NCBI GenBank assembly: GCA_021158185.1
Contig: JAGGVC010000126.1
Coordinates: forward strand, 10,689 to 74,688
From: a bacterium
GTDB taxonomy: Bacteria > 4484-113 > JAGGVC01
DNA: 64,000 nt
Direction of reading: 5' to 3'
Shown: piece after piece, positions 3,461 to 47,393 of the stretch
Position numbering within the stretch: position 1 is the first letter of the stretch
How the letters are laid out: the number at the start of each line of letters is the position of its first letter
Notes under the pieces: generated by a model
What the model was told of the DNA's origin: nothing
Database searches by the model: none
What the model saw: the letters and a program-made list of their open reading frames with translations, nothing else
Program-made: the position numbers and the translations under genes

Positions 3461-5587
3461 CTATTCGCCGTTCGATTTGGTCTTGACGATATTGATGGGA
3501 AGCATGTACATATCGTATATCACGTAGTCCATCGGGATTGTAACTTTGATTTCCTTTTCTTCGTCGGGATGTAGATCGTCTGTGGGAATGCCTTGAGATT
3601 CGGCCTGCTGTTCTTCCGGCGTGGGCGGACGCGGTATTACGACCATGAGCTGGTTGTTTTTCTCGCCTTTCTTTATTTTCTCAAGAGTTTCGTCTACCTT
3701 GAGTATTTCAGGGCCGAGCGGGAGAGGGCCCGCGGAAATAGGGAAGAGCACGGTGCCTTTACCGCCGTATTCGTTGTAAATGCTTACGAGACCGCCGCCG
3801 CCCTGCACGATGAGCGATGTCTGACCTTCAGGGAAATCGCGCGGTATTCTGATCATTAACTCCTGCTCAATCGTTTCACCGCGGTAAGGCTGCAGCGTCA
3901 CTTTGACGTTGACGATCTCTCCCGGCATGAATTCCTTGACTTCAAGGTCCGGAGGAGGTGCCTCTTCTTCCGCTGCCGTGATATCTGGAGCCATTTCAGC
4001 TTCTGCTTGCATGTTTGCCGCTTCGCTCTCGGTATCAATGTTTTCGCTGCCATTCTGTGCTTGTTCGGTTGTTTCGGGCTCAACGTTACCTTCAACTTCT
4101 GATTCCTGTTGTTCCTCTGCGTCGGGATCGATGATTTCAGCTTTGTCCACGCTTGCATTGATACGGTTATTGGTTACCTCAAAGTCAATGCTGAATGTAT
4201 TGATTCGGATGTCGCGATAGTTGTTGAAAAGAATGAACGCAGCTGTGGGGAGGGCTTCTGCGGCCACGAATGAGGCCGCGTTGAAATTGTCATAGAAGTA
4301 GTTCTCGCGCTCGAAAGTCTCTTCAAGTTCGTCCGATTCAATTCTATAGGTGATTTTTATCGTTCCGCCGCCATCACGATCAAGCATCTGGTAGTAGGAC
4401 ATCATCGTAACCATATAAAGCAGCGTTTCGAAAAGGTCTTCGTCACGAATAATCTTGTACACGTAGGTTTTTTTTTGGTTCAGGTCAATATCCTTGATGT
4501 TTATCCTGACATCGATCATGTCAGGCTGAAGGCCGACGATTCCTCCGACTGCTGCCGCGTGATCGTAAGTTAACGTTCCGACCTGGTTCAGCATATAGCC
4601 GTCCTTGAAGCCGCGCATGATGTCGCTGTATGTGTACGAGATATAGGCCTTGCCGAACGGCATGTTGATAATGCCGTCCTGAAACATACCGTGTCCGAAT
4701 GCAAGAATGCGATTCTGGTCGTCGATATATGTGAGAGTTCCTATCCCTGCAAGATCGAAGTCTCCTGTTACAAAGGCGATTGCGAGCGCATCACCGGGCT
4801 GAAGTGTGTTGATGTCGCCCTGTTCTTTGAGAAGGCCGTAGCCTTTCGGTCCCGCGCCGGACGGACCTTGCGCAAGCGTAAAGCCGGAAAGCTTGGAGTT
4901 GCCCTTGAGGATTGGCTCAACCATATCGAAAGTACGTGCGCTAACACCGCCCACGAGAAGCCTTCCCTTCAGTGGAACAGCATAAACGGGAGCGACTGGC
5001 GCTGTTCTAACGGCATTCATTTTAGCGGCATAATCCCAGTCATTCGTGTGGATGACCGAAGGAGCTTCCGTCTCGTTGTTTTCCTCATCCGAGTCGGAAG
5101 GGATGACTGGCCCGCCGGGGCCTGTTGAAAACTGAGTGAATGCGGGAGGCAGTACTGTATTTTCGCTGTAATCACGTTCCTCACCCTGATCGAGAGCTTT
5201 GAGCATCGAGATGATCGGTGTGGCCCCGCAGATATGAGTGTCGGTGCCCGGTATCGCGGAGCTTATTGCCCCTGCAAGCTTGCCCTCGAAGTAAATGGGG
5301 CTGCCCGAATAACCTGCGGCGATTCCATTGGAGAAATCAACGGCTGCACCGGTTACTTTGAGGAGGATCATCGCACCGGCGTCGAACCCGCCCTCCGGAA
5401 TGACATCGATAACTTCGATGTCGAATTCGTCGATTCGGGTTCCTTCGATTACGGTTTTTCCTGTGCCTGCAAGCCCCGGATAGATATCTTCAACGGCGAA
5501 AAAATCGCTTGCGTACGCATTTGATTGGATCAGCACAAAGGCCAAAAGAAGCACAGACAATGAAAACATGATTCTGAGTTTGTTCAT
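3461..5587 (-). CDS. Secreted peptidase S55 (SpoIVB-like) family protein with an acidic low-complexity linker and a C-terminal domain
   Basis: Signal peptide MNKLRIMFSLSVLLLAFVLIQSNAYA. GYSGSPIY matches the S55 catalytic Ser motif (GxSGSP). TLTYIDDQNRILAFGHGM matches the SpoIVB His motif (TYID...ALGHGI). A Glu/Asp-rich linker lies at about aa 470-540. Confidence 0.5.
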   Translation of the reverse strand: MNKLRIMFSLSVLLLAFVLIQSNAYASDFFAVEDIYPGLAGTGKTVIEGTRIDEFDIEVIDVIPEGGFDAGAMILLKVTGAAVDFSNGIAAGYSGSPIYFEGKLAGAISSAIPGTDTHICGATPIISMLKALDQGEERDYSENTVLPPAFTQFSTGPGGPVIPSDSDEENNETEAPSVIHTNDWDYAAKMNAVRTAPVAPVYAVPLKGRLLVGGVSARTFDMVEPILKGNSKLSGFTLAQGPSGAGPKGYGLLKEQGDINTLQPGDALAIAFVTGDFDLAGIGTLTYIDDQNRILAFGHGMFQDGIINMPFGKAYISYTYSDIMRGFKDGYMLNQVGTLTYDHAAAVGGIVGLQPDMIDVRINIKDIDLNQKKTYVYKIIRDEDLFETLLYMVTMMSYYQMLDRDGGGTIKITYRIESDELEETFERENYFYDNFNAASFVAAEALPTAAFILFNNYRDIRINTFSIDFEVTNNRINASVDKAEIIDPDAEEQQESEVEGNVEPETTEQAQNGSENIDTESEAANMQAEAEMAPDITAAEEEAPPPDLEVKEFMPGEIVNVKVTLQPYRGETIEQELMIRIPRDFPEGQTSLIVQGGGGLVSIYNEYGGKGTVLFPISAGPLPLGPEILKVDETLEKIKKGEKNNQLMVVIPRPPTPEEQQAESQGIPTDDLHPDEEKEIKVTIPMDYVIYDMYMLPINIVKTKSNGE

Positions 5588-6420
5588 AATCAGCTCCTGA
5601 TTGGAAAAACAGAACAGAGTTTGTGTTGTCAGCTGCTAACTGTCAACAGGGAATTTATACCCTAAATACCTTGTTCTTTGTAGCTTTTGACTTGCAGGGA
5701 ATGCATTTTGCGTAAATCAATAATTTCACATATCGGGTTCACAAGCATCTTCATGCGAGCAGAAATGCGCTTTTCAGCGTGTACGCAAGTGCTCGGTGGT
5801 TACCCGCTTGTCGTTTGTTTTTGCTGGGCCAAGGGCACACGAGGAGTAATGAGGTAGAGCGGGGGATGGATCAGGATTGCCATCCCAGGCGGAGCAAAGC
5901 ACAGTCGCCAATCCCAACACAATACATTTCGCCTGCACGTTACTCCGCCGGGGATGTTGCAACCCAGGTTGAAGAGAGTCTGAACATTTTTCAAAATGCT
6001 GCCAGTCTACTGATCTACTGAGAAATCTCAGCGAAGACCGGATGCATTTTCTTCTGCAGTGTCGCGTTATCCCGGGGGATGTTCGGGAGAATGAAACTGC
6101 ATGCCGAATTTTAATGTTCACCTGAAGGCAGCGCTTTCCGGGGAAAAACGTTGCCCTGTATCATTTAACCTGAGATAGAGCACTTTGGCTATAGGCTATG
6201 ACAGTGTTTCACAACAGAGACCATTTTTGACATGTCGGATGTCAGTGCGGTTTCGTAGCATTTGCCCATTCACGTTTGGTGATCAAAATCTTGTTTCCTC
6301 TGCTTCGCGCAGATTTACATTTCTTCTTTGTGCTTTCATAAGGTAGAATATATGCAGCAATTTTCCGGGTGTTGAAAGGTGCAGGTTGCCAGTTTATTCT
6401 GGTTATTGTGGGTGAGTGAA

Positions 6421-7983
6421 ATGGAATCATCATTAAGGATTGCTCGTTTTTGTTTTGTCTGCATTGCCGCGATTATGCTGGCGATTACTCTTCTGTCGTG
6501 CAAGGACGGCGGCGGAAGACTAGTCATTACCCAGCCCAGTGACTTGGTCAAGACCAATGCTACAGCAGTTTCACTCGGCGACGACAAGCCGATCGTTCTC
6601 GATTATGACCACGGGAGCGGAGCGACGCCGCAGGGATTTGTGCCCGTCGATTCGTTCGAGCTGGACAATTCCATCGCTGGCGAGTTCACAGCGGCAGTCG
6701 AAGTTACACTCGTTCTGACTGAAGGCGTTGCCCCTGGAACTTCGATTTACATCTACGAGATCATTAGAGCAACCGGCGCACTTATTCCTGTGGCAAGCTC
6801 GGTAGTCGGGGAGGATGGACGAACAATCGTCATTACTCTCAATCGGCAGGGAAGATACCTGGTGCTTATCCTAGCTGACCAGATGGATCCCGCGGCGCAG
6901 TTCGAGGTGTGGGCTTTCGCCGACTTCGCACTAGGGGAAGCGCCGCTGGAAATCAATTTCTTTGCTTTTGAAAGCGGTGGAATCGAGCCTATAACGTATC
7001 TTTGGGATTTCGGCGATGGCGGCGAAGGTGAAGGTTCGGTCGTTTCTCATTCGTACCTTGCGATGGGCGAGTACAACGTTGTGCTTACCGCGACGGACGA
7101 TTCCGGTCGAACAGCGGTCTTTGATTCCACATCCATCGAAATTACAGGTGAGCCTGCACCGCTCGATGTCGTACTTCAGAGTCCGCAGCCTACCGGGAAC
7201 GAAAGAGAGATGCAACTCATCGCAACGGTTTCCGGGGGCTTTGCACCGTTTACATACGAGTGGGATTTCGGCGACGGAACTGCGAGTGAAGAGCCGAACC
7301 CGATTCATACATATGCCGAGTCCGGTATTTTCGCAGTTAGCGTTACAGTGACAGATGCCTTTGGCTTCACATTCACGCCGGATTCACAGACAGCGGACGT
7401 AAGAAGCGCTTCGCTTGATGGTGCACCGCTTGCAGGTCAGCGTGAACTCGATGTTACGTTCGATGTATATGCCGCTGCTGACGATGACAACCCGACTGTC
7501 GTGTCGCTCGACTTTGGTGATGACAGCGGTCTATTTGTACTGAGCACGCTCACTGAAGAGGATCTCACCATTGACGAGCAGGTTCTACACACTTACCTTT
7601 TGCAGGGAACATATACGGCGACGTTGTTGATTTCTACGATGTGGCAGAGCGAAGCGCTGGAGATTCAAGATACCGTGCAGATTGTAGTCGGGCCTGGTAC
7701 TCCCGAGATTCTAGATGTTGCTCCTAATCCTGCCAGTTCGGGAGACCTGATTACCGTTACCGGCAGATTCTTCGAGGACGGCACGAACGGTACGCTCAGA
7801 TGGAGCGGCACGGACATCCCTACGGAAACCTGGTCCGATACCGAGATAACGTTTCTTGTTCCAGCGTCGTCCGTGGATGGTGTTGTAACTGTGGTAAATG
7901 AAGGGCTAGAGAGCATCGGCGCGGATTTGAAAGTGATACCGGATATTCCTGAGTGGGGCGAGGGTGGTCTAGGCCAGTTCTAG
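6421..7983 (+). CDS. Surface lipoprotein with two PKD domains and a C-terminal IPT/TIG domain
   Basis: Signal plus lipobox (…LAITLLSC). Two WDFGDG-type PKD repeats (YLWDFGDGGEG…, YEWDFGDGTAS…). The C-terminal IPT-like segment reads PEILDVAPNPASSGDLITVTGRFF. The ATG at 6421 is preferred over the GTG at 6379. Confidence 0.65.
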   Translation: MESSLRIARFCFVCIAAIMLAITLLSCKDGGGRLVITQPSDLVKTNATAVSLGDDKPIVLDYDHGSGATPQGFVPVDSFELDNSIAGEFTAAVEVTLVLTEGVAPGTSIYIYEIIRATGALIPVASSVVGEDGRTIVITLNRQGRYLVLILADQMDPAAQFEVWAFADFALGEAPLEINFFAFESGGIEPITYLWDFGDGGEGEGSVVSHSYLAMGEYNVVLTATDDSGRTAVFDSTSIEITGEPAPLDVVLQSPQPTGNEREMQLIATVSGGFAPFTYEWDFGDGTASEEPNPIHTYAESGIFAVSVTVTDAFGFTFTPDSQTADVRSASLDGAPLAGQRELDVTFDVYAAADDDNPTVVSLDFGDDSGLFVLSTLTEEDLTIDEQVLHTYLLQGTYTATLLISTMWQSEALEIQDTVQIVVGPGTPEILDVAPNPASSGDLITVTGRFFEDGTNGTLRWSGTDIPTETWSDTEITFLVPASSVDGVVTVVNEGLESIGADLKVIPDIPEWGEGGLGQF

Positions 7984-8082
7984 TATCAGCCAGCCCGGTT
8001 TTTTTGTGTTGCGCCGATTTACGAGGCGAATGTTGATTTGCTTCGATGAGGCGTTAGAGTTGATTAGTATTATTCCTGATCT

Positions 8083-11000
8083 ATGGCGGTGATTGAAGTG
8101 AGGAAATTTGTACTTGCTTCGTTTCTGTTGATTCTGATTGTGCTTGTTTCGCTTGCTTGCGGAAAGGGCACAGGAATGAGGTCCGTTCCGTTCACAAGCG
8201 GATTCACGAACGTTGGCGATGATGCTGCAGACGTCGAGGAATCCCCGAATCTCACGCTGAATGTAATGCGCGATACGAGTGGGCTGCCAACGGGCGTACG
8301 CATCACGTGGCTGTACTCGACTCAGGCGGGGGTGGCTGGTTACAACATCTATCGATCAACCAGTTCCTTTACTGATACAGGGCAGGCGGTGCTGGCAAAC
8401 GCCATCCCAGTTACCGGGGCTCCCGGTGTCCTCGCGGACTTCGAGGATATTTTTCCCGTAACGATCGGTGATGAGTTCTTCTACCGGATTACTGCCGTGG
8501 ATTCCGAAGGTGACGAAAGCCCGTTGTCCGATGAGCTTTCGATTGTGATTTCCCACCATTACATAACCGCCTTGAACGTCTATTCAGGCGGTGCTGATGA
8601 TGTAATCACAATTCTCGGTGGTAACTTCGGTGATTACGATGAACAGAGCGACCGAGTTATGTTCTATGGTGTGACCTTGTATCTGCCGTCATCCCTTGAT
8701 CGTTCGCCTTCGGCTGTAGCTTCACAGGGCTTTGTCAGTGCAACGGTAGTTTCCTGGCAGAATGAGCAGATAGAAGTTGTTGTGCCTCAGTTTACGACAT
8801 CCGGCACGGTTCGGGTTCAAATCAACGGAGTGAATGCCAACCTGGACGGCACGTTTACATCGACGGATCCGTATATGCTCTCAGCCGCACCCGACCCAGC
8901 GATCGAGGGGAAATTGCTTACGATTACTGGAAACAATTTTGGAGACGTTAGGTTGTCGAGCATGGTAAGACTTGGAGCTGTAACATTGAACAAGGATTCC
9001 GATTTCGAAGAATGGTCGAATACCGAAATCAAGTTGATTATGCCTATGAAGATTTTGGGCATCATCAAACTTGACGTCGTAGTTCCCGTAAAACCAGTAT
9101 CAAATTCGTTTATGATGAACATTGCTCCGCTGCCCGATCCGGTCATTTACACGGTAACTCCACTATCCGCGTTCAACGGCAACATTGTTACGATTGGCGG
9201 TGCTAATTTCGCGGAATATGTGGCTACAGAGGATTTTGTATCACTGCGGGGCATTCCAGCTTCCAAGGTGGGTGCGATGCTCAGGAAACCGTCTGCAACG
9301 GCGGTAGAGCAGTATATCGGAGCACGTATCATTAGCTGGACGGATACAATGATCTCCATATTTGTACCCGATTATACAACGATCGGACCGGTGAGAGTTG
9401 ATAGAGGAAGTAAGAGCGTTGTCTTTGATGGCCCGTTTGACTCGCTAAGCCCTGCGATTTTCAGCGCAACACCGGATCCGATCCCTGCAGGTCAGATTCT
9501 TACGCTGACTGGTCGTAACTTTGGCGACATCAGGGGCACGAGCTACGTTAGAGTTGGAAACGTGATGCTCGGCAGCGATGCGCAGTACGACTTCTGGGGG
9601 GATACGGAGATACGGTGCTTTGTTCCAGGCGGTATTGGCGGGATTCAGGACGTGATCGCATCCATTGACGGAAAGGGGCAGTCAAACGCACTTTCAATTT
9701 CCATTACTTCTGCGCTTTTGCCCGTGATAGAAGATGTATCTCCTCAGAAAGCCACAGGCGCTCAACTGGTAACCATCACAGGTCAGCATTTCGGTGATGT
9801 TGCAGGGACAGTGAATATTAACGGAGCTGTGATAAAGACTGGCGCTCCGAATCTTGTGGGGTGGAGCGATACGCTGATAGACATAACTGTGCCTGACACC
9901 GCCGACTTAACAGGCCGAATCAAGGTCAATACAACTGATGGAAGGAACAGCAATGAATGGTACTACAGACGAGGAGTACCGCAGGACGCCGCTTTCAAGA
10001 ATGAGAGCATCCTGTTTGCAGGGCAGATGACGGGAATCGGTTCCGATGCTGTAAATGACGGCGCGTATTCGCACTTCTTCTCCATTTCGGCGAATGCCCG
10101 CGAAATCGTGCATGTCAAAGTAGACGATAACACGGGCGGTGTTCAGGAAGGCATCGTAACGGCTTCATATCCCAACCTGACAGCAAGACTTGCAACGGTA
10201 TTCGATGGGACAAATATTTGGCTCGCGTTCGTTTCAAACAACAAGGTTTACATAACGAGCAGTGCCGATCAGGGATCTACGTGGGATATGCCTGCAACCG
10301 AGGTGTTCGCTGGACCTGCAGATATCGGATCGCTCAGTATTTGCAGCGATTTCGCAGGCAATGCATCCCTCGCGTGGGGTGATATAGCGACCGGCGATGT
10401 GTATTTCAGTCACTTCAGTGCTGCAGCGGGAGGCTGGGTCAATGAGATCGTCGGTATCGGATATACCGTCGGAGATGTTGATGTTGCAATTCAGGATCCC
10501 GTTGCAGGAAAATTGACTCTGGTTACTTACTATACTCTTGCAACGGACGAGATTCAGGTTCTAAGCAACACTACAGGCCTGTGGACACCATACATCGGCC
10601 CGGTCGTCGGCGGCGGACTCTATCACAACGTGTTATTCAAAGACAATGATGCCGAGCCGAGCGTTCTGTTCCTGGATGCTGGCGGCAATATTTCGCTGGC
10701 TTCCGAATGGCCCACTGACCCGGGTGTATGGTCTCTTCTCACGATTCCTACGTCGGCTGGTCTCGGTAACGGACTTGATTCTCTTGATGCAGGAAGCCCG
10801 ATTATGTATATCGCAACCGGAAGTTTCGGTGGTAACATAGATCCGTATTTGATCGAATATAACTATGTTGCCGATTCGAGGATTGAGTACCATATGATTG
10901 ATATCAACAATAAATATGCAGCGTATCCGGCGGTGCTCGTTGATTCTCTGGGCGATGTGAAAAGCATGCATACCGACGTAACGTTGTGGGATCATTGGAT

Positions 11001-24079: not shown

Positions 24080-24091
24080 AGGGGGGGGATT

Positions 24092-27831: not shown

Positions 27832-30164
27832 ATGGTGAATTTGAACCAGCCGGTTGACGTTGAGCTTCTTTGCAAGGCAGGAGGGGGACGCACTTATACA
27901 TATCGGTACAACCTTCATTATCTGTACCCGGAGCCGGGTGAGATCGTTGTTGTTCCTTTCGGTTCAAGACTTGCCCCCGCCGTCGTTGTCGAGAAACCGA
28001 AGGTCGAACCCGCTCTTCGTCTGCCGCTTGGCAGTGTCGCGTCGAGTTCCTTTTCAGACATAGAAAAGCTTAGGCCGATTCTGGGTGTCGTTCGTGAACC
28101 CGGAATTCTTCACTCAATATCAGTATCCGCAGGTAGATTGATTAAGAAATATCTACGCTCTGCTGCTGCCGCATTTTCGACGTGGACACCGGCATCGTTT
28201 GAGCGAGAATTCAAGCTGTTTTTTTTTGCCCGGGTGGGCGTGAGCGCCTGAAGGAATATATCCGCGCTCTCAATAATAAAGGTGAGCTTGACAAGAATAG
28301 CGCAGCCAGAATCCTAGAAATACTCGAGCCTTGTTGTGATGAACCCAAACAGCTTCTTGCGCGCACGATCCGCTTCTTGATCAAGTATCCCGCACGCTCA
28401 GGAAGGCCGCCGCAGGGTCTTCTGTCAGATGCGAGACTCCAGGCAATGGTCAACCTCGGGCTTCTCAAATTCCTTGTCCGTCCAAAGTACATCGAGGCGT
28501 TTGAAGATTATGCAACCGGATCATCGCCGCCATCTCCATTACCAAACCTGTTTACGGATTTCAAGCTGTTCAAACTGGCTGAACGGAACGCGTTTCTCGC
28601 ATCATTTCCCGAAGCAATCACTATATTTACCGCATTCTCAGGTGTCGATCGAATCCTTTGCGACGGTCTTTCAGAATTTCTTGATGCTTCGGTTGTCGCA
28701 TCAAGGCAAAGGCGGGCAATTATCGCGCCATCGAAGGGCTGGTGCACAATCATCGGGGAGCGGCTAATCAAACTTGGATTGAAACCCGCTTTCTTCAACT
28801 CAGCTCTCTCTCCCGCAAGAACGAGGAAGCTCCTGGGCGATGTTTTGAATGGCAAGCGCGATATCGCGGTGGGTACACGCGCTCTTGCACCACTCACCTC
28901 TCATTTTGGCCCATCGGATGTTTTTTTGTTTGACGCGGACTCGACCGCTTTCGATGCGGAACCGACACATCCCGATGTTCTGGGCATACTCGGCGCCGGG
29001 CTTGCAGATGGGAGTACCGTTTTTATTCACCATTTCAAGGGCGCAGGGGCAAAAGAGGCTGGCATTTCTCCTGACATCAGCCCTGCGTTCAAAGGCAAAA
29101 CCAGCAGAACTCCCACAAAAAAATCCCCTGACTCTGCAAGAAAGCTGCATCGAGGCCTACCGGACAGCCGGCTTGAAGTAGTTAATCTTGCCAGATGGAA
29201 GGAATCCCCCAAAGGTGATAATCCTGTGGCTCTTCTTGCCATCGAGGTAGCCAGAGGTGGTTCACAGCTTTTGCTTGTCCAAAACAGGCTGGGCGAATCG
29301 AGCGGGTTTTACTGTGCCGAATGCTACACAGATATTCCCTGTCCGAGGTGCGGTGCGATGCTCCACTTCACAGGCGGTCGCTACAAGTGCTCGACGTGCG
29401 GATTCTCGGATTCAAAGATAGCGTGCCCGGCTTGCGGTTCAACGAGTCTCGGGCGTACGGCTCCCGGTATTTTTTCGACCGCAAAGGATATTTCGAAGCT
29501 TCTCGGCTCAAAGGACGGGATAAGAACGTTTTTTTCGGAATCAGACATCGGCAGGAGTGATTCATCCAACGAGTCCGGCATTGGAACAAATGCAGACAAG
29601 CGCGTAAACGACAAAGCCGCACCAGGAATCTCTATTTCGACCGATGTGTGCCTGTACCGCAGACTGCCTGTCCATCCTGATGCGATAGTTGTTACGGGCA
29701 TAGAGGACAAGCTTTCCCGATATGCATATAGCGGAGGCGAGCGCTCTTCCGCTTATCTGGCTCGGATTCGCGGAATTTACTCCGGTGAGAGTACAAGGCT
29801 TATAGTGGGCACGTTCCGATATGACCATCCGTTTTTCCGCTGGCTTCGCGGAGAAAATGATGGGTATTTCGTCGAGCGAAAAAAACTAGCCTTGAAGCGC
29901 GGTCTTCCGCCATTTGCGCCAATGTTCGTTGTTCGCGTTAGGGCAAGCGCTTACAAGCAGGCGTGGCTTTTTGCAAAGGCGTTGAAGAGTGAGTTTGGAG
30001 AATCATCCTTTCTTGATCCGGTCGCCCTGCGCGGTGCGAGTGTAACCCGTAAGGTTCTTGAAATCGAGGCGGCTTCGCCCCTTGACAATTTTCAAAGGAA
30101 AACCATTGTTGCTCTCGGAAGAAAGTACAAGATTGAGGCTCTCCCGTACGTTACGTACTTCTAG
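27832..30164 (+). pseudogene. priA: PriA-like primosomal protein, split by a frameshift at a T9 homopolymer (28219-28227) and carrying degenerate ATPase motifs
   Basis: The N-terminal ORF 27832-28251 matches the PriA 3'-DNA-binding domain (YTYRY…GEIVVVPFGSRLAPAVVV). Frame 3 is open from 28203 and continues collinear with PriA through the Cys-rich zinc region (CAECYTDIPCPRCG…CSTCG…CPACGS). Walker A, Walker B and motif VI are replaced by FSGVDR, FDADST and IRGIYSG. Confidence 0.55.
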
Positions 30165-36618: not shown

Positions 36619-37722
<1,104 letters not shown>

Positions 37723-37784
37723 TCAGCATACTCTCCCGTTGAAACACCGCATTTGAGATGGAAACGCCATCCCTGAGAAGATGC

Positions 37785-38279
37785 CTAATCATTGCTTCTC
37801 AAGTACATCAGCACTGGGCTTTCGTCCAAGATGAATGCAATCGAATCAGCTGACTCAAGGATAGAATTCCATTCGGGAACGCTGATATTCTTGATTAAGG
37901 GTACCGTGAGATCGAAAATCGGGTCGTCTCCTTCAAGGGCGGTAAGCAGATTTCCACAGATTACATTAAGCACTTCCTTCAATGCATCTTCAGCGTGGCC
38001 TATGACGATCTCATCATCGATATCCATCCCAAGAACGTTCGCCGCGATTTCCGAACATACATCAGTCGGTACGACAATTCCGAGGGTTCCCGACCTCGGG
38101 CCTTTGAATGTCATATAAGCCTCGGTGCAGTCGGATGACGGCTCTGGTATCTCATCCTTCGGAACAGCATCCCCGAACATGAAGGCAAGTTTCTCCAGAA
38201 CGTCAATAAAGACACTCTTGGCAATATCTCTGTTGTTTTCAGCTTCCATCCTGTACCCCCAGAATATCATCGACAACAT
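37785..38279 (-). CDS. cheX: CheC/CheX-family chemotaxis phosphatase (CheX-like)
   Basis: About 155-aa CheX-like protein (…ICGNLLTALEG…). It lies between cheY and cheB. The start may be the internal Met at about 38249. Confidence 0.5.
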   Translation of the reverse strand: MLSMIFWGYRMEAENNRDIAKSVFIDVLEKLAFMFGDAVPKDEIPEPSSDCTEAYMTFKGPRSGTLGIVVPTDVCSEIAANVLGMDIDDEIVIGHAEDALKEVLNVICGNLLTALEGDDPIFDLTVPLIKNISVPEWNSILESADSIAFILDESPVLMYLRSND

Positions 38280-38628
38280 TCTTCAAAAGCTCAGGGGTGA
38301 ACGGCTTGCGCAAATATGCGCTAACCCCTTTCTGCTTGAGTTGCTCCATTCGAGTCTTACTGCCTTCGGTTGATACGATTACAACCGGAACTGATTTCAG
38401 AAGTCCGTCTTCACTCATTTTGTCGATCATCTCTACGCCCCCCATTACAGGCATATTAATGTCGGCGAAAATAAGGTCGATCCAGTTGTCAGCAAGGATA
38501 TCAAGAGCTTCCTTGCCGTTGGCAGCCTCATAAAGCTGTCCTACTGGTATTTCGGCCAGCTTCAGCGTTTTCCTTATTACTGCCCTAACCGTGGAAGAAT
38601 CATCCACAACAAGAATATTTAGAGCCAT
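38239..38628 (-). CDS. cheY: Chemotaxis response regulator CheY
   Basis: 129-aa single receiver domain (ILVVDDSSTVR…DLIFADINMP…K). Confidence 0.85.
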   Translation of the reverse strand: MALNILVVDDSSTVRAVIRKTLKLAEIPVGQLYEAANGKEALDILADNWIDLIFADINMPVMGGVEMIDKMSEDGLLKSVPVVIVSTEGSKTRMEQLKQKGVSAYLRKPFTPELLKNVVDDILGVQDGS

Positions 38629-38640
38629 AATGACCTCCGT

Positions 38641-39486
38641 CTACTGGTTGAACCAGCTGTGAAATCCCTCAAGCCCAGTAACGATTTGCATAACAACAGG
38701 CTCGGTGATTTTGGGTTTAAGGTTGTATTTCTCGACAATAATACGTGATGGACGATAATTCAGTCCGTCCATGCCTGAGCCGATACCGCCTAACAGACAT
38801 AGATTATTTGCCAGGTGTACCATTTCAAGCACCTGTGATCCATGCTCAGCCTCATCAGGAATATGATGGTATCGCACGATCTCGGTGATATCGGTAGGGA
38901 GCTTCCATGCAGCCAGGAGCAAAGAACCAACTTCGGCGTGGTCTATGCCCAGAATTTCCCTTTCTGCTGCATCAAAGCTGACGCCTTCATTGAATGCAAG
39001 CTGCATTATTGGACTCGCGTCCACTTCGATAAACGTACCCATGATGATCTTGCCGATATCATGAAGCAGTCCGGCCGTGAATGCATGATCGGGAAGCTTC
39101 AGATTAAGAGCCAATCCCATCTTTTCTGTGCCAATTGCGACTGCAACGGCGTGCGTCCAAAGATCGCCTGCGGGAAGATCGTAGCCTTTCACGGCTTTAC
39201 TGGCAATTGGCGCAATAGCGGACGCGATTACGAGTTGCGAAATCCGGTTTGTACCGAGTCTGATAGCTGCTTCGCGAACTGAGTTAACTTTGCGGGGCAT
39301 ACCGAAGTATGCGGAATTTGCCAGCTTCAGGAGGTTTGCAGTAAGCCCTGGATCGAATTCGATAATTTTCGTCAGCTCACCGATGTCTATGTCAGGATCC
39401 TGGATCATATTCAGTATTTGAACCGCGGATGCAGGCAGTCCTTGGAGACTTCTGATCCGTTCAATTATCTCGTTCCTTCGACTCAA
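38641..39486 (-). CDS. HDOD domain signalling protein
   Basis: HDOD signatures (…LPASAVQILNMIQDPD…LANSAYFG…HDIGK). Confidence 0.8.
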   Translation of the reverse strand: MSRRNEIIERIRSLQGLPASAVQILNMIQDPDIDIGELTKIIEFDPGLTANLLKLANSAYFGMPRKVNSVREAAIRLGTNRISQLVIASAIAPIASKAVKGYDLPAGDLWTHAVAVAIGTEKMGLALNLKLPDHAFTAGLLHDIGKIIMGTFIEVDASPIMQLAFNEGVSFDAAEREILGIDHAEVGSLLLAAWKLPTDITEIVRYHHIPDEAEHGSQVLEMVHLANNLCLLGGIGSGMDGLNYRPSRIIVEKYNLKPKITEPVVMQIVTGLEGFHSWFNQ

Positions 39487-39959
39487 AGCTCACTCTCCTT
39501 ACCGCCTGACTTGACAATCGTTTTGCCAGTTGCCATTTGAAGGTACATAGTTCTTGCAATTGTGCCGCCGATGTCTTCCGATTTGATGAGGATATTGTTC
39601 TTCCAGAGGATTTTTCGCAAGACCGTATAGTTCCTTTCGCCGATCTTGAAAAGCCCCTTTGCATCCAGAAGCGAAGCAGCTCCAGCAACCTTGGCGATGA
39701 GTCGTTTTCTCTCTGCACCCAGCCTGTATACTTCCGTCAGGAGTTCAGGTATTCCGGTATCAACAAACATGCACGGGTTTGTATCAGCCTTCTTGCGATC
39801 AATTTTGGACAGTGGGAGCATGCAATGTATGAGTCCGCCGACCAATACGACAGGATCATATACTGCAAGGCCGATGCATGAGCCAAGAGAGTATGTTACG
39901 AGAATGTCGTCGCTCTGGGTTGAAACTCGCATGTCTGAAATTCCAATTGTATACTGCAC
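39483..39959 (-). CDS. cheD: Chemoreceptor glutamine deamidase CheD
   Basis: …YSLGSCIGLAVYDPV…GGLIHCMLP is a CheD signature. Confidence 0.85.
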   Translation of the reverse strand: MQYTIGISDMRVSTQSDDILVTYSLGSCIGLAVYDPVVLVGGLIHCMLPLSKIDRKKADTNPCMFVDTGIPELLTEVYRLGAERKRLIAKVAGAASLLDAKGLFKIGERNYTVLRKILWKNNILIKSEDIGGTIARTMYLQMATGKTIVKSGGKESEL

Positions 39960-40018
39960 GTTACAACTCCGTGTTCCAGAAATAAGTCCGCGCTTATGTC
40001 AACAGTACAACAGCAGAA

Positions 40019-40840
40019 CTATCCCTGCTTTATGTACGTCGCAGGTCTGACAGTTTTGAAATCGCTAACAATGCCTGTCAGGCTTTCTGAATGGCCTACA
40101 AACAAGTATCCGCCGGGTTTCACTAAACGGTAAATCTCGCTGAGGAGATTCCTGCGTACAACATTATCGAAGTAAATCATGACATTGCGGCAGAAAACCA
40201 CATCCATCGGGCCCCTCATAGGAAACGGAGGGGTGGCGAGATTCAGCCGCTTATATACTATCATTCTTTTCAGCTCATCCTTGACATGGTATAGAGCTCC
40301 GTCTGCGGTTTTTTCTTTTGTGAAGTATTTATGTTTCAGCATAGGGGGTACGGTTTCCAATTTTTTGGCCTGATACGCTCCGAGCATTGCCTTGTTAATG
40401 ACCTTTGTTGAAATATCGGTTGCAAGAATCCTTATGTCGCAGTTATGCCCTTCTGAAACCTCCTTGAGCGTTATTGCCATGCTGTATGGCTCTTCACCGC
40501 TGCTACATCCTGCCGACCAGAATCGGAACTTGCGTTGTCCATTCTCAAGCCATTTTGATGCCAACTGGGTGAGAAGCTCGAAATGGTGGGTTTCGCGATA
40601 GAAACTCGTCACATTCGTAGATATTGCATCAAGCAGATGTACGATTTCCTCGCCGGATTTATCTTGGCTAAGATATCTAAGATACGTCGCAAAATCACCG
40701 TGTTCAATACCGAGAGCGCGAATTCGCTTGGCAACCCTTGCGGATACGAGTGCTTCCTTGCCCGGTTTCAAAGCAATTCCACTTTTCTCGTAGACAATCT
40801 TGACGAACTTATTGAATATTACCTTTTCCATTCTGCTCAC
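40019..40840 (-). CDS. cheR: Chemotaxis protein methyltransferase CheR
   Basis: …TSFYRETHHFELL…WSAGCSSGEEPYSMAI… is the CheR SAM-methyltransferase signature. Confidence 0.9.
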   Translation of the reverse strand: MSRMEKVIFNKFVKIVYEKSGIALKPGKEALVSARVAKRIRALGIEHGDFATYLRYLSQDKSGEEIVHLLDAISTNVTSFYRETHHFELLTQLASKWLENGQRKFRFWSAGCSSGEEPYSMAITLKEVSEGHNCDIRILATDISTKVINKAMLGAYQAKKLETVPPMLKHKYFTKEKTADGALYHVKDELKRMIVYKRLNLATPPFPMRGPMDVVFCRNVMIYFDNVVRRNLLSEIYRLVKPGGYLFVGHSESLTGIVSDFKTVRPATYIKQG

Positions 40841-40851
40841 GAATCAAAGCT

Positions 40852-43800
40852 CTACGATGAAGGAATACTCTTTTCATCCACCATTTCCTGCTGATCGGCG
40901 GATCGGTCAGTGGCTGACAGCTTAATGAGCCCGTCGATGTCGAGTATCAAGCCTACGCGGCCATCCGGCATAATCGCTCCTCCGGCAATTCCGGGGATTC
41001 CGCTCATATACTCGCCGAGCGATTTGATAACGATCTGTTGTTGCCCAAGAATATCGTCCACCACAATGCCTATGCGTTTGTTGTCGTTCTCAACGACTAT
41101 CGTAGTTGCCTTTACTATATCGCTCTCAGCGTTCGGAATGCGATAAAGGCCTGCGAGGTGAACAATCGGAATGAGTTCGCCTTGAAAATTCATCACACTC
41201 CCGCGTTCCAGAACACCCGAAATATCATGTTTATCCGGACGGACGGATTGCAGGATAGATAATGTCGGCATAATGTAGCGCTCTCTTCCCACACGAACCA
41301 CCATTCCATCGATAATTGCAAGTGTGAGAGGTAATCTTATGCTGAATACACTACCCTTGCCGGGCTCCGAGGAAACAACGACTTGGCCGCGGATAGCATC
41401 GATGTTCTTTCTGACAACGTCCATGCCTACACCGCGTCCGGATACATCAGTTATCTTTTTTGCAGTTGAAAAACCCGGCTCAAAGATAAGATTGAATATT
41501 TCATTGTCCGATAGCTGATCGCCATCATTGACTAGGCGGCGTTCAACGGCCTTTGCGACAATGGCATCCTTGTCAAGACCGCGCCCGTCATCCTCGATTT
41601 CAATGAAAATACTTCCACCCTTGTGGAAAGCACGCAATTCAACGTTCCCCGCAGATGGCTTTCCTGCAGTGATTCTTTCGTTATGATCGTGTTCGATGCC
41701 GTGGTCGATTGCGTTTCTAACCATATGAACGAGAGGGTCGCCGATACGATCGATCACACTTTTGTCCAGCTCAGTATCTTCACCAACTGTATTGAAGTTC
41801 ACCACTTTACCGGCTTTTTTTGAAAGGTCACGCACAAGCCTAGCCATTTTCTGGAATGTGGGGCGAATCGGTACCATTCGAAGAGAAGTGCCCATTTCCT
41901 GAAGTTGACGCGTTATCTTGTTAAGCTGCCCCATATGGCGTTCGAGTGATTCTGATGCGATCTTGCGAATCTCGTCGGACTGTCCGACCATTGACTCGGC
42001 AATGACAAGTTCACCAATCAGATCCACAAGGCGGTCGAGCCTATCGGCATCGACCTTGAGCGCTTCCTTTATGACAACAGCTTTACCGGTTGCGGGAGCC
42101 TTCTGACCTCGAAGAGCGCGAACGATATCTTTGCCTGATGCTCTCTTTTCGCGCACAAGCACTTCTCCAAGTTTCTTTGGTGGCTTATCCTGTTTTTGAG
42201 CGATCAGGCCATCGACAACATCGTTAGGCGTTATCGTGCCAGTTTCAACGAGGATTTGCCCCAGCTTCATCCCTTTCGGGGCAATAAGCTCGGGTTCGGT
42301 TGCTATGGGCTTACCTTCGGATACCGCCTTAAGATTTTTGATGAGAGGCGAAATAGACCCGTCAAACGGAAGAGGCTTTCCGGTTTCAAGCGCTCTTGAT
42401 ACGTTGGCTACAAGCCGCTTCATCGCATCAATAGCATCGAATATTGTATCGATAACCACTCCCTGCAATACAAGCTCTTTTTTTCTTGACTTGTCAAGCA
42501 GGCTCTCAGCTTCATGCGCAAGCGACTGAATCTGATCTAGATCGAGAAAGCCGGATACGCCTTTTATCGTATGAAATGCCCTGAAAACAGCGTTAACGGC
42601 TTCCTCGTCTTCAGGATTGCCCTCTAGCTTAAGAACGTTCAAGTCTGCGTTATCGAGATGCTCATTCGATTCAGAAATAAAGTCAGTAAGGAGTTCTTCA
42701 TCTAAGCCTGCAAGCGATGTCTCTTTGCCTTCTTCATCTTCAGCAGGAATCTCATTTTCGGCCTTTGCTGCTACTAAATCTGCAGAGCCAGTCGAAAGCA
42801 TGTTGATGATCGAATCCACACTGCCTGGGAGCATGCTCTTTCCCATATATGCATTGATAGTTCGCGCGAGCCAGTCCTTTGCAGCAAAGAGCTCATCAAT
42901 GATCGCTCGCACTCCTCTTTCCGCCAAGGCATCCTCGATAGCATGGCAGAGACGCCCAATTTCCATCAATCCCATAAGGCCCGAGTCGCCCTTCAATGTA
43001 TGAATGAGCCGCTTCAACTGAGCAAGTTTCTCTACGTCATCCTGTCCTTCGAGTGCAAGGATCAGCTCTTCAAGTTCGCGCAATGATGCAGTCTGACTCT
43101 GCAGAAAGTCCTTGAATATTGCTTCATCGACATTCCGTGGAATCTTCGCTGCCAAGCCCGGTTTATCTTCCGTCTTTTCTTCAACGATTCCGCTTACAAT
43201 TTCAGGTGGAAAACCGGCTTCAGCGATTGTTTTGCCTTCGACAAGCACGTTTGTCAGGCTCTTTACCGTGTCTGAAAGGAGGTTTACTGCATGTCCTGTA
43301 TCGTTCACTTCGTCGAGAAGTATCTTCTCGACAAGATCTGCTGCATTCCTGGCAGCAGTTGCACAACGCAATTCCGTCATCTCATCTGCAATGTCCGCAG
43401 CCTTTGTAAATTCGGTATGAAGGTCGGCCAGAGACCTTGGATCGGATATATCCAGTAACTTGATGGCTTTGGCAAGTGTTTTCAAATGAACCGCGGCATC
43501 GATCTCTTCATCGTCTAATTCCGGAACCTCTTCTGTTGGTGTTGGGAGTTGAATATCGTCAAAAGCAAGATTCAGCTCAGGAGGAAAATTTGCCTCGGCG
43601 AATGTTCTGCCATCCGAGAACATTGAAATCAGACTATTGCAGGTCTTACGCACGACAGATATGCCTTTAGCCGGTTCGAATTCCTCAAGCAGGATATTTT
43701 CAACGATATCGGCAGCCGCGCGTGCAGCAGCAGCGGCCTTATCGTCGGATAAATCCTCAGCGGCTTCTCCAACTCCGGTAATAATTGTATGAAGGTCTGC

Positions 43801-44265
43801 GAGTGCACGAGGATCACCTGCATCAGTTGATGTAGTCATTGTCAGCAGAGTTTCAAGAAGAGCTGTGATTTCTCCTTCTTCCCCTGGCGGCTCCTCGGAT
43901 GCTTCCACTATTTTTGCCTCTGCGGATTCAACATCCAGTTCAGCGGGGAAGTGCGATTCATCGAACGTGCGACCGTCAATAAACATCATCTGAAGGCCCG
44001 ATGCAACCTTTCCTACTAGGTCCATTCCCTTCTCAGCATCAATATCTTCAAGAAGAACCTGCTCGACAATATCAGCGGCAAGGTGCGCCGCCGCCGCAGC
44101 TTTCGATTCTGTCAAATCCTCTGCAACGTCCTCAACTTGCATAAGAAGAGTGTGAAGATCGGCAAGGGATCTCGGATCCGATCGATCGGTGAAGACTATC
44201 GTTTCGGATAGTTTTTTCAGGAGTTCCTCAATTTTTCCATCTTCCGATTCGGGTGTCTTTGGCAT
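40852..44265 (-). CDS. cheA: Chemotaxis histidine kinase CheA (1137 aa) with three N-terminal ~110-aa repeats, two Hpt domains, dimerisation, HATPase and C-terminal CheW-like domains
   Basis: Hpt motifs HTLKGDSGLMG and FHTIKGVSGFLDL. HATPase G-boxes (DDGRGLD, GRGVGMDVV). A CheW-like C-terminus. Three N-terminal repeats share D(I/A)SDPR(S/A)LADLHT…AEDL…KAAAAA…. Confidence 0.9.
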   Translation of the reverse strand: MPKTPESEDGKIEELLKKLSETIVFTDRSDPRSLADLHTLLMQVEDVAEDLTESKAAAAAHLAADIVEQVLLEDIDAEKGMDLVGKVASGLQMMFIDGRTFDESHFPAELDVESAEAKIVEASEEPPGEEGEITALLETLLTMTTSTDAGDPRALADLHTIITGVGEAAEDLSDDKAAAAARAAADIVENILLEEFEPAKGISVVRKTCNSLISMFSDGRTFAEANFPPELNLAFDDIQLPTPTEEVPELDDEEIDAAVHLKTLAKAIKLLDISDPRSLADLHTEFTKAADIADEMTELRCATAARNAADLVEKILLDEVNDTGHAVNLLSDTVKSLTNVLVEGKTIAEAGFPPEIVSGIVEEKTEDKPGLAAKIPRNVDEAIFKDFLQSQTASLRELEELILALEGQDDVEKLAQLKRLIHTLKGDSGLMGLMEIGRLCHAIEDALAERGVRAIIDELFAAKDWLARTINAYMGKSMLPGSVDSIINMLSTGSADLVAAKAENEIPAEDEEGKETSLAGLDEELLTDFISESNEHLDNADLNVLKLEGNPEDEEAVNAVFRAFHTIKGVSGFLDLDQIQSLAHEAESLLDKSRKKELVLQGVVIDTIFDAIDAMKRLVANVSRALETGKPLPFDGSISPLIKNLKAVSEGKPIATEPELIAPKGMKLGQILVETGTITPNDVVDGLIAQKQDKPPKKLGEVLVREKRASGKDIVRALRGQKAPATGKAVVIKEALKVDADRLDRLVDLIGELVIAESMVGQSDEIRKIASESLERHMGQLNKITRQLQEMGTSLRMVPIRPTFQKMARLVRDLSKKAGKVVNFNTVGEDTELDKSVIDRIGDPLVHMVRNAIDHGIEHDHNERITAGKPSAGNVELRAFHKGGSIFIEIEDDGRGLDKDAIVAKAVERRLVNDGDQLSDNEIFNLIFEPGFSTAKKITDVSGRGVGMDVVRKNIDAIRGQVVVSSEPGKGSVFSIRLPLTLAIIDGMVVRVGRERYIMPTLSILQSVRPDKHDISGVLERGSVMNFQGELIPIVHLAGLYRIPNAESDIVKATTIVVENDNKRIGIVVDDILGQQQIVIKSLGEYMSGIPGIAGGAIMPDGRVGLILDIDGLIKLSATDRSADQQEMVDEKSIPSS
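43209..44208 (-). repeat. Three tandem ~330-nt intragenic repeats encoding the unknown N-terminal repeat domain of CheA
   Basis: DPRSLADLHT, DPRALADLHT and DPRSLADLHT recur at about 110-aa intervals with conserved flanks. Confidence 0.5.
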
Positions 44266-44855: not shown

Positions 44856-47393
44856 TTGTCGTCGGTGGTTTTTATGTGCAAAACCGATATTTCGAAAGCG
44901 ACGCCGCTTTTTAAGCAGTATTACGCTCTCAAGAAAGATCACATGGGAGCGATTCTGCTTTTCAGGCTCGGCGACTTTTACGAGATGTTCGGCGCCGACG
45001 CCGAAGCAGCCAGCCGTATACTCGGCATCACGCTCACATCCCGCAGGCTCAGCAACGAAGCGCGGGTGCCGATGTGCGGCGTGCCGCACCACAGTATTAA
45101 ACGCTATATCAAGCGATTGATCGAAGCCGGCTTGACCGTTGCCGTGGCTGATCAGGTTGAAGACGCGAGCGAAGCGAAAGGCATCGTCAGGCGCGAAGTT
45201 ACAAGGGTAATCATGCCGGGCACGATTATCGAGGAAGACTACCTGGATGAAGGATCGCTGAATTACCTTGCGGTTGTTACGAAAAGAAAAGACAGAATCG
45301 GGTTTGCAGTTCTCGAATCGAGCGGAGGCATAGTCCACGCGGGCGAAATGTCCTATGATTCAGCTGGTAGCGTCGCAAATGAAATAGAAAGCCGCGGCCC
45401 GCGAGAGCTTAAACTATCTCCCGAACTCATGAATGACAGAACGTTCAGCCATCTCCGCGCAAGTTTGCCTAAAGATACAGTTCATGAAACAGGCGAGTTT
45501 CCATCCGAGCCGGACCTGGTTTTCTTCGCCGAAAGGCAGTTCAACGCACCTCTGAAATCACTTGGAATAGAGGGCAAGCCAGCGCTTCTCCAGGCTCTTT
45601 TCGAAATCATTCGCACACTCCAGTACAGCTTCAAAGTGACCGATCTTCCACTAACGCTTGTATCGCTCGATCTATCCGACCATATGGTTCTTGACGGCCA
45701 TACGATTACAAACCTGGAAATACTCGCAAGCCCGTATGCGGGCGGTGAAGCGCTTATCGATGTTTTTGCCCGCCCAAAAACTGGTATGGGCAAGCGGATG
45801 CTTACGGAATGGCTTCGTGCTCCGCTTCGCAATGCATCGTCCGCGTCCGAACGCCTCGATGCCGTGCAATCGCTGCAAAACGAAAGTGAAGTCCTGGATG
45901 CAATACAGGAACTTCTCACGGGAATATGCGACATCGAGCGAATTGCGAACAGGGCGGGGCTCGACCGCACAAATCCGCGCGAACTTGCAGCATTACGGGA
46001 GTCCCTTAAGAGGCTTTCAGAATTATCGGATGTACTGAATAATGCTCCGCAGGATAAATCAGATGTCGATCTGAGTAGCTTGGTGAATCTACTTGCGCGA
46101 ATCGCAGAACGGCTTGGGGCAAAACTTGAGCTTGCAGAGAAGCTTGCGCTCATCCTGGCTGAAGAACCGCCCGTGAACGTCTCGGATGGCGGAGTGATAG
46201 CCGAAGGTTTTTCCGCTGAACTTGACGATCTTAGAAAGATTATTCGAGAGGGCAAGAATTGGTTTCTCAGCTATCAGAAGAGCGAGGCAGAGCGTTCAGG
46301 AATCCGTTCTCTTAAAGTCAAGTATACTGGTGCATTCGGCTATTTTATAGAAGTATCAAATGCAAATCTTCATCTGGTTCCGAAGGATTACACGCGTAAG
46401 CAAACTCTTGTGAATGCCGAGCGCTTCACGACATCAGCGCTTTCGGAGCACGAATTGAAGCTTTCTTCCGCGGAGGAGGATTCGCTCAGACTTGAGACGG
46501 AGTTGTTTAACAAGCTTGTTTCCGATGTTGCGAACGAGAGAGACACGCTTATTGGCATTGCAGATGCTGTCGGGATGCTTGATGTGCTTGCAAGTTTCGC
46601 CGTGACTGCCGAGCGGGATCAATGGATGCGTCCGGAGTTTGTAGAGACCTGCGGAGTTGACATCAAATTGGGGCGGCATCCGATGGTGGAGCGCGCAGTC
46701 GGAAGGAACAGGTACGTTGCCAACGATGTAGTGCTTTCACCCGAATCACAGCAGATCGTTATCCTGACTGGGCCGAACATGGGCGGGAAATCCACGTATA
46801 TGCGGATGGTTGCGCATATTGTACTTCTTGCCCATGCAGGCAGCTTTGTTCCAGCGGAATCGGCTCGCATTGGTGTAACGGACCGCATTTTTACTCGTAT
46901 CGGTGCATCCGACGCGCTGGCGATAGGGCAGAGTACGTTTATGATGGAAATGATCGAGACAGCGGAGATACTTCGTACGGCCACGAATCGCAGCCTTGTA
47001 ATCCTCGATGAGGTAGGGCGTGGCACTGGAACATACGACGGACTTTCGATTGCGAAGGCGGTTGTCGAGTATTTGCACGAACATCCGCGCGCACGCCCGC
47101 TTACGCTCTTTGCGACCCATTATTTCGAGCTGACCGAGCTTGCATCGATACTCCCGAGGGTTTTGAATCTCCGTATGGAAGTGCTGAAGGAAGGCGACGA
47201 GTTCGTATTTCTGTATGCGGTCGAGCAAGGATTCGCCGATGAATCCTATGGAATCGAGGTTGCCAGGCTCGCGGGACTGCCGGAAGGCGTAGTTTTACGC
47301 GCTCGCAGAATCCTTGAGGAGCTTGAAGAAGTGAAACATGCCCACCTGAAACACGCTCGCGAAATAATTCAGTTGGGTCTTTTCGAGGAATGA
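44856..47393 (+). CDS. mutS: DNA mismatch repair protein MutS
   Basis: N-terminal mismatch-binding motif (…TPLFKQYYALKKDH…LFRLGDFYEMFG…), Walker A GPNMGGKSTYMR, and DE…HELT. Confidence 0.95.
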   Translation: MSSVVFMCKTDISKATPLFKQYYALKKDHMGAILLFRLGDFYEMFGADAEAASRILGITLTSRRLSNEARVPMCGVPHHSIKRYIKRLIEAGLTVAVADQVEDASEAKGIVRREVTRVIMPGTIIEEDYLDEGSLNYLAVVTKRKDRIGFAVLESSGGIVHAGEMSYDSAGSVANEIESRGPRELKLSPELMNDRTFSHLRASLPKDTVHETGEFPSEPDLVFFAERQFNAPLKSLGIEGKPALLQALFEIIRTLQYSFKVTDLPLTLVSLDLSDHMVLDGHTITNLEILASPYAGGEALIDVFARPKTGMGKRMLTEWLRAPLRNASSASERLDAVQSLQNESEVLDAIQELLTGICDIERIANRAGLDRTNPRELAALRESLKRLSELSDVLNNAPQDKSDVDLSSLVNLLARIAERLGAKLELAEKLALILAEEPPVNVSDGGVIAEGFSAELDDLRKIIREGKNWFLSYQKSEAERSGIRSLKVKYTGAFGYFIEVSNANLHLVPKDYTRKQTLVNAERFTTSALSEHELKLSSAEEDSLRLETELFNKLVSDVANERDTLIGIADAVGMLDVLASFAVTAERDQWMRPEFVETCGVDIKLGRHPMVERAVGRNRYVANDVVLSPESQQIVILTGPNMGGKSTYMRMVAHIVLLAHAGSFVPAESARIGVTDRIFTRIGASDALAIGQSTFMMEMIETAEILRTATNRSLVILDEVGRGTGTYDGLSIAKAVVEYLHEHPRARPLTLFATHYFELTELASILPRVLNLRMEVLKEGDEFVFLYAVEQGFADESYGIEVARLAGLPEGVVLRARRILEELEEVKHAHLKHAREIIQLGLFEE

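Follow-up and report, generated by a model that had tools for sequence, protein, structure and literature searches.

A PriA pseudohelicase gene divided between two overlapping frames at a conserved run of nine T residues, and its probable expression by transcriptional slippage

To our knowledge, conserved programmed frame changes are few in the non-mobile chromosomal genes of bacteria, the classic cases being prfB and dnaX. Bacterial RNA polymerase slips efficiently on runs of nine A or T residues, and from that length onwards such runs are depleted from coding regions (PMC5009743, PMC1088944, PMC3711429). In Shigella flexneri mxiE, a single non-templated U, added by the polymerase at a T run, fuses mxiEa and mxiEb (Penno et al. 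2005, via PMC1088944, PMC5009743). Among replication-restart proteins, the PriA of Deinococcus radiodurans has no ATPase or helicase activity; it interacts with DnaB and binds forks as well as single-stranded DNA (Lopper et al. 2015, PMC4504706). The Escherichia coli priA300 allele (K230R) is near wild type in vivo, with restart proceeding without ATPase activity (PMC5778457). Here we describe a priA gene in a 64,000-nucleotide stretch of bacterial DNA (contig JAGGVC010000126.1 of GenBank assembly GCA_021158185.1, positions 10,689 to 74,688 of the forward strand; hereafter the window) that has lost its ATPase motifs and is laid out in two open reading frames (ORFs) that overlap and meet at a run of nine T residues (T9), where the full-length product is probably made by transcriptional slippage. 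Both components are of known kinds, namely a pseudohelicase PriA and a T9-mediated ORF fusion, and in the literature searched we found no report of recoding in priA and no mention of a frame break in it.

The gene lies on the plus strand, with a 139-amino-acid ORF in frame 1 (ORF1) followed by a 595-amino-acid ORF in frame 3 (ORF2, positions 28377-30164 of the window). An initial annotation of the window had described these ORFs as collinear with full-length PriA and as joined only through a one-base change at T9, and this is borne out by the coordinates, by the fusion itself, in which one T inserted at T9 gives an uninterrupted 777-amino-acid product, and by the profile-profile comparison described below; frame 3 is indeed open from 28203, and ORF1 and the frame-3 ORF overlap at the run. 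Passing from frame 1 to frame 3 at T9 is a -1 change, for which either an additional U in the mRNA or a ribosome slipping by -1 would suffice. The site corresponds to residues 129-131 of the fused protein, at the boundary between the 3'-DNA-binding domain (3'BD) and the winged-helix (WH) region, and the Pfam match to the 3'BD stops at residue 108. Before 28377, which is 50 codons past the run, the -1 frame of the window is without any ATG, GTG or TTG, so most of the 28228-28445 segment is translated only after a frame change. The public record lists the locus under two tags, J7K50_09280 and J7K50_09285, each given as a hypothetical protein, and an Rfam scan of the window gave no match.

What the initial annotation had missed is that the frameshift site is itself conserved. 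When 1.84 billion cluster representatives were scanned exhaustively with HMMER, a small family emerged (P0005, P0006 and P0007, 32-36% identity) together with fragments, followed by a large gap and then by canonical PriAs from an E value of 6e-14, while a word-indexed protein search, whether started from the fused protein or from the family alignment, returned only the gene itself and distant canonical PriAs and missed the true relatives. Genome and metagenome scans added only more assemblies of known lineages, an N-terminal fragment that ends before the site (L015) and distant PriA homologues. The family fragments left out were L019, on a 1-kb contig, and the contig of GCA_039961635.1 (L020, JABRWB010000090.1), which begins about 20 codons downstream of the T9 position as seen in Logan contig L021; a break in assembly at the homopolymer, or close to it, may be the cause, and the site for this species was taken from L021. 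The resulting sample comprises four T9 lineages, represented by the window, L009, L010 (a species also assembled independently as L012 and L014) and L021, and one lineage without T9, L008.

All four T9 lineages share the same codon, the same run and the same two-ORF layout, with the codons at the run reading CTG TTT TTT TTT GCC CGG in the window, GTG TTT TTT TTT GCA TAA in L009, GTG TTT TTT TTT GCC GTA in L010 and GTG TTT TTT TTT GCG CGT in L021. The genes themselves have 41-52% nucleotide identity and 30-44% amino-acid identity, with only 20% of nucleotides identical in all four, and the longest block common to the four is the 13-nucleotide TGTTTTTTTTTGC, the next longest being 5 nucleotides. 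In each lineage the -1 frame encodes FFC, then a segment of constant length (72-73 amino acids), then AMVNLG (SELVSEG in L021). This segment, which aligns to the part of PriA lying between the 3'BD and helicase lobe 1, is conserved in the -1 frame only (window to L009, 32% over 68 amino acids; L009 to L010, 47%; L009 to L021, 40% over 40 amino acids), and past the run the zero frame gives tails that bear no relation to each other (ARVGVSA*, A*, AVILKRPRLT* and a 42-amino-acid tail). TTT makes up 41-57% of phenylalanine codons in the genomes of the T9 lineages, and the probability of finding it at 12 of 12 codons at the run is about 1e-4 even with FFF taken as given. L008 has V-C-F-Q-V at the same place (GTT TGC TTT CAA GTA), so the three phenylalanines are not required by the protein. 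These observations support the view that selection acts on the site itself, and the most likely account of the layout is programmed recoding at T9 that would join both ORFs.

The junction of L008 lies within one continuous ORF, and the position of this lineage in the family bears on which product is the functional one. Neighbour joining with outgroups recovers the family as monophyletic (100%), with L021 at its base (98%), the window grouped with L008 (93%) and L009 grouped with L010 (100%). Because L008, with its continuous ORF, is nested inside the T9 lineages (93-98% bootstrap), the fused protein appears to be the functional product. On this tree, and with caution given its long branches, T9 appears to be ancestral and L008 to have lost it by restoring a continuous frame. 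The L008 gene (CAZRQJ010000044.1) has a different -1 break near its 3' end, at about 7849-7865, where an A3 run (CGG AAA TCG) separates ORFs 6001-7938 and 7935-8255. The break splits off the last 106 amino acids (P0013), one added A gives a 751-amino-acid protein whose alignment with the family runs to the end, and the break is not kept in the other lineages; either a fault of assembly or a genuine lesion could account for it.

The run has the same length wherever it was recovered. Two further contigs, one from JGI and one from ENA, carry the same locus with one or two substitutions relative to the window, both with T9. Position 34907 sets the window apart from both public contigs (T versus C), and position 30005 sets the ENA contig apart from the window (A versus G, a synonymous change in ORF2), so the sequence exists in three or more slightly different versions. 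Further copies, again all with T9, are L004 from a second ENA sample, L022 from a second JGI sample (97.5% identical) and L023, bringing the T9 sequences of the window lineage to six (window, L001, L002/L005, L004, L022 and L023). T9 is also found in the L010 species in three assemblies from two studies, and in one assembly each for L009 and L021, and the exact 139-amino-acid ORF1 product is present on five contigs, Logan assemblies included. At the consensus level, no T10 or T8 allele was found in any assembly of any lineage recovered. The gene belongs to a small, deep-branching family of an uncultured bacterial lineage; for the MutS encoded in the window (mutS at 44856-47393), the nearest relatives have 62-66% identity and the rest at most 49%, spread over many phyla.

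We consider it probable that this locus is an orthologous priA which encodes a pseudohelicase in two overlapping frames and yields its full-length product through transcriptional slippage at T9. Standard decoding would meet a stop shortly past T9 and release the 139-amino-acid protein, that is, the 3'BD alone; in every lineage, the predicted short zero-frame product is likewise a free 3'BD, of about 130-165 amino acids. In a fraction of transcripts, RNA polymerase would slip on the nine template A residues and add a tenth U (U9 to U10), which would put the frame-3 ORF in phase and give the 777-amino-acid protein. Judged by its sequence, the full-length product is a scaffold of a 3'-end-binding domain, a winged-helix-like region, two RecA-like lobes, a Cys-rich region and a C-terminal domain. 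The predicted junction peptide is EFKLFFFCPGGR (...KLFFFCPGGR...) whether polymerase or ribosome slips. T9 has the length used elsewhere to recognise slippage genes, an uninterrupted A/T run of about 9 or more (PMC1088944, PMC3711429).

Several lines of evidence identify the gene as priA. ORF1 matches Pfam PriA_3primeBD (PF17764) above its cut-off of 22.7 bits (Table 1). ORF2 matches the NCBIfam priA model TIGR00595 weakly (49.1 bits against a 230-bit cut-off), the PRK05580 models all score far below their own cut-offs on it, and PDB PriA chains match it with an E value of 1e-6 across the Cys-rich region, lobe 2 and the C-terminal domain. The low scores with curated models are due to family-wide divergence and not to decay. 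When the fused family was compared by hhalign with 11 PriA homologues, two of which themselves are without the ATPase motifs, the match had a probability of 99.8% and an E value of 8.7e-30 over 613 columns (query residues 8-723) and was collinear over the 3'BD, WH, both helicase lobes, the Cys-rich region and the C-terminal domain. For the frame-3 ORF, AlphaFold gave a model of moderate confidence (mean pLDDT 61), with the WH part of low confidence, and in a Foldseek search with the ORF2 model the nine best PDB matches were all PriA (E values of 5e-21 to 3e-11), the next helicase following at 4e-6.

Within the window, ORF1 and ORF2 are the only matches to PriA profiles, and their neighbourhood speaks to orthology. 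The gene order is remA-like, gmk, rpoZ, coaBC, a PpiC-type rotamase gene and priA, then, on the opposite strand, rph, murI, a GerM-domain gene and smpB. The order remA-gmk-rpoZ-coaBC-ppiC-[gene]-rph-murI is common to the window and relatives, with the part up to [gene] seen in four relatives, and this synteny holds at every locus of the family. We take gmk-rpoZ-coaBC-priA to be the arrangement on the Bacillus subtilis map as well. Because it occupies this conserved slot after remA-gmk-rpoZ-coaBC, the gene is best read as the ancestral, orthologous priA and not as the paralogue that the initial annotation had considered.

The ATPase motifs of PriA (Walker A GxGKT, Walker B DEEH and motif VI QxxGRxGR) are missing in every family member. 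In the hhalign alignment of the family with PriA, GSGKT is matched by FSGVD, DEEH by DA-D and QVAGRAGR by ARIRGIYS, which upholds the replacement of Walker A, Walker B and motif VI described in the initial annotation. Other family members have AGLAD, SNWQR or SSLVD at Walker A and LDANAP, VVASSS or INSDSS at Walker B, and since both motifs are replaced in all relatives, their loss is old and family-wide. The eight cysteines of the Cys-rich region, which in PriA form four CxxC pairs that bind two Zn and were also reported earlier as intact, are invariant in the family alignment. Selection is observed on both frames: between the window and the strain that is 97.5% identical (59 differences), the ratio of non-synonymous to synonymous substitution rates (dN/dS) is 0.25 for the fused frame and 0.20 for ORF2, against 1.07 and 6.0 in the wrong frames, and third codon positions hold 36 of the 59 differences. 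We conclude that the gene is a conserved PriA pseudohelicase under purifying selection whose ATPase motifs appear to be long lost, and not a decaying pseudogene. The 'scaffold-only PriA' offered among the earlier options is thus the one that holds, with the motifs missing family-wide, purifying selection, and the PriA fold kept. Presumably the product serves to recognise forks that have been abandoned and to recruit the replicative helicase to them, with no unwinding of DNA. The earlier inference that replication restart would have to depend on another copy or pathway is unnecessary, as the E. coli priA300 and D. radiodurans proteins work without ATPase activity (PMC5778457, PMC4504706).

Two Ser/Lys/Asp-rich insertions in the window protein (29076-29156 and 29535-29612) are not present in the relatives and are predicted to be disordered (pLDDT below 50), and the co-occurring strain L023 has an in-frame 27-nucleotide tandem duplication (DISKLLGSK twice) adjoining the second of them, at about window position 29517. 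Among the best PriA homologues in the library, more than 50 of 137 full-length sequences are without Walker A GK[TS], DEEH and motif VI by simple pattern match, yet have four CxxC pairs. ATPase-dead PriA homologues seem to be common among uncultured bacteria, well beyond the published Deinococcus case.

Table 1. Features of the priA locus in window coordinates.
Feature	Coordinates	Strand	Description
ORF1, zero frame	27832..28251	+	Predicted standard-decoding product; complete PriA 3'-DNA-binding domain, then a short non-conserved tail (ARVGVSA*) past the T run; PF17764 27.4 bits, residues 20-108
Putative recoding site TG-T9-GC	28217..28229	+	T9 at 28219-28227; identical in four lineages; 13-nt 4-way block
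Winged-helix-like linker, 73 codons, -1 frame (frame 3)	28228..28445	+	Aligns to the PriA WH region in profile-profile comparison
Frame-3 open reading frame, 653 codons to stop	28203..30164	+	WH-like region, two degenerate superfamily 2 (SF2) helicase lobes, Cys-rich region, C-terminal domain
Walker A remnant FSGVDR	28635..28652	+	K and T of GKT replaced by V and D; profile alignment
Walker B remnant FDADST replacing DEEH	28929..28946	+	Profile alignment
Cys-rich region (CRR), four CxxC pairs, intact	29313..29438	+	C495, C498, C504, C507, C520, C523, C532, C535
Motif VI remnant IRGIY replacing GRAGR, arginine fingers lost	29766..29780	+	Profile alignment

The same site could also be programmed at the level of the ribosome, with two tRNA-Phe slipping back one base on U_UUU_UUU so that UGC would be the next codon while the mRNA stays U9. 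Relative to the zero frame the heptamer is correctly phased (T TTT TTT within TTT TTT TTT), the predicted junction FFFC is the same as with transcriptional slippage, and E. coli dnaX is a replication gene that uses -1 ribosomal frameshifting. However, neither a conserved downstream hairpin or pseudoknot nor an upstream Shine-Dalgarno (SD)-like element was found in the four sequences: RNAalifold gave a consensus energy of about 0 both upstream and downstream and the single-sequence folds were not alike (with limited power from four divergent sequences), and no SD-like element was seen upstream of the run. No terminator-like call was made at the run either. Transcriptional slippage is favoured because all four lineages keep nine T residues where the heptamer needs seven, because no RNA stimulator is conserved around the site, because a run of nine is the length at which RNA polymerase slips efficiently, and because Shigella mxiE uses the same T-run design, and we regard the ribosomal mechanism, the chief rival, as rather unlikely but realistic. 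A truly split PriA is a distinctly more improbable alternative, in which ORF1 would supply the 3'BD and ORF2, initiated internally from or near the Met of AMVNLG (28446), would work in trans without any frame change. In E. coli, PriA divided within the winged-helix domain, at residues 154/157, retains almost full function with both pieces (PMC5778457), and gene callers begin ORF2 at the conserved Met in three lineages. Against this, four lineages have kept the 72-73 codons from T9 to that Met open and conserved in the -1 frame, where they align to the PriA WH region, which would be unexplained for untranslated sequence, the junction is continuous in L008, and a split protein offers no reason for the conserved 13-nucleotide T9 block. 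An SD-like sequence was not found before 28446 or 28377, a weak guide to an internal ORF2 start given that such a motif was seen in 10 of 23 genes.

If the DNA run itself varied in length, the locus could be a phase-variable contingency locus in which replication slippage between T9 (off) and T10 (on) switches full-length PriA within populations, and homopolymer runs this long are hypermutable in DNA too (PMC1088944, PMC3711429). We think this very improbable, with every consensus sequence at T9, no T10 or T8 alleles, and an 'off' state that would be fixed across lineages. We give almost no credence to the remaining explanation, that a T10 run was misread or misassembled or that a recent mutation inactivated a decaying pseudogene. 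Homopolymers are classic sites of indel errors, and the score is far under the curated PriA thresholds (49 versus 230 bits). But the same T9 occurs in independent JGI, ENA, NCBI and Logan assemblies and in four lineages at 30-44% amino-acid identity, and the homopolymer assembly error and the decaying pseudogene of the initial annotation both fall on these grounds; the other nine-base run in the window (4468-4476) lies inside an uninterrupted 708-amino-acid ORF, so runs of nine are not generally mis-assembled here; and the gene has a low dN/dS and a strong third-position bias, its low scores being a matter of family-wide divergence. Transcriptional slippage at T9 in an orthologous priA remains the explanation we think probable, and a number of points weigh against it. 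The U10 transcripts and the 777-amino-acid protein are predictions from sequence, the zero-frame U_UUU_UUU would serve equally as a slippery heptamer for -1 ribosomal frameshifting and give the same peptide, and the sample of four T9 lineages and one non-T9 lineage is small and is linked by a tree with long branches. Some assemblies of one lineage may share reads. ORF1 alone shows a weak signal of selection, with 3 synonymous versus 6 non-synonymous differences (dN/dS 0.68), and the structure model of ORF2 reaches only moderate confidence.

If the gene is recoded at T9, priA would be a second replication gene with a programmed frame change, kept across very deep divergence. A more speculative extension, which we put forward tentatively and consider unlikely as it stands, is that T9 might be a conserved decoding switch that sets the ratio of free 3'-end-binding domain to full-length, ATPase-dead fork-recognition scaffold, in the manner of dnaX tau/gamma. 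A function for the short 3'BD product is hypothetical; it could have its own role, for example in capping nascent 3' ends at stalled forks or competing for them. Conditions that alter RNA polymerase slippage, such as UTP supply or elongation rate, might shift the ratio, and such a switch would add a new layer of regulation to replication restart in a lineage that has dispensed with PriA helicase activity. Alternatively, the T9 site may simply keep full-length PriA scarce. The ATPase-dead PriA of Deinococcus would be no oddity, with a separate deep lineage and many metagenomic homologues that have lost the three signatures and kept the predicted zinc-binding region, and this wide loss supports fork recognition and helicase recruitment, not unwinding, as the core job of PriA. 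For annotation, the locus is a case that pipelines present as two hypothetical proteins and that genome-quality tools would count as a pseudogene.

Some other features of the window were noted. The A9 run at 4468-4476 is on the sense strand and in frame within a minus-strand ORF (3461-5587, 708 amino acids, weak Peptidase_S55 match) whose frame is unbroken, and it should also be prone to transcriptional slippage. A G8 run at 24081-24088 lies within an SD-like sequence directly upstream of the start of the remA-like gene (TTAGAGGGGGGGGATT ATG), where variation in its length could possibly affect translation initiation. About 6 kb downstream of priA, on the minus strand at 36619-44265, is a chemotaxis cluster encoding CheB, CheX, a response regulator, an HDOD/HD protein, CheD, CheR and a 1137-amino-acid CheA with two Hpt stretches.

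Compared with described systems, the closest counterpart to the protein of this family is D. radiodurans PriA, in which the Walker A and B catalytic residues are likewise not conserved; in the family described here the GKT lysine, DEEH and motif VI are missing and the PriA architecture and cysteines are retained, but it is separate, very divergent (about 49 bits with canonical models) and known from sequence alone. The E. coli split-PriA suppressor (PMC5778457) resembles it in that a break in the polypeptide is tolerated near the WH domain, close to the T9 site. Whereas priA300 and the split PriA are laboratory mutants, both features are natural, fixed and conserved here. With mxiE the locus shares two overlapping ORFs, a longer functional protein that would need the slip and a short product of standard decoding. 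However, mxiE is a plasmid-borne virulence regulator of one genus, and the present gene is a chromosomal replication-restart gene whose slippage, inferred from sequence, would extend across 30-44% protein identity. The tau and gamma proteins of dnaX offer the parallel of a homopolymer or slippery site from which one replication gene gives a full-length and a truncated protein at a set ratio, reached by transcriptional slippage on A9 in Thermus thermophilus and by -1 ribosomal frameshifting on A_AAA_AAG in E. coli with the same outcome. In these dnaX genes the zero frame gives the long product and recoding the short one, whereas here recoding would be needed for the long product, as it is in the two-ORF dnaX genes of Chlorobi (PMC3711429).

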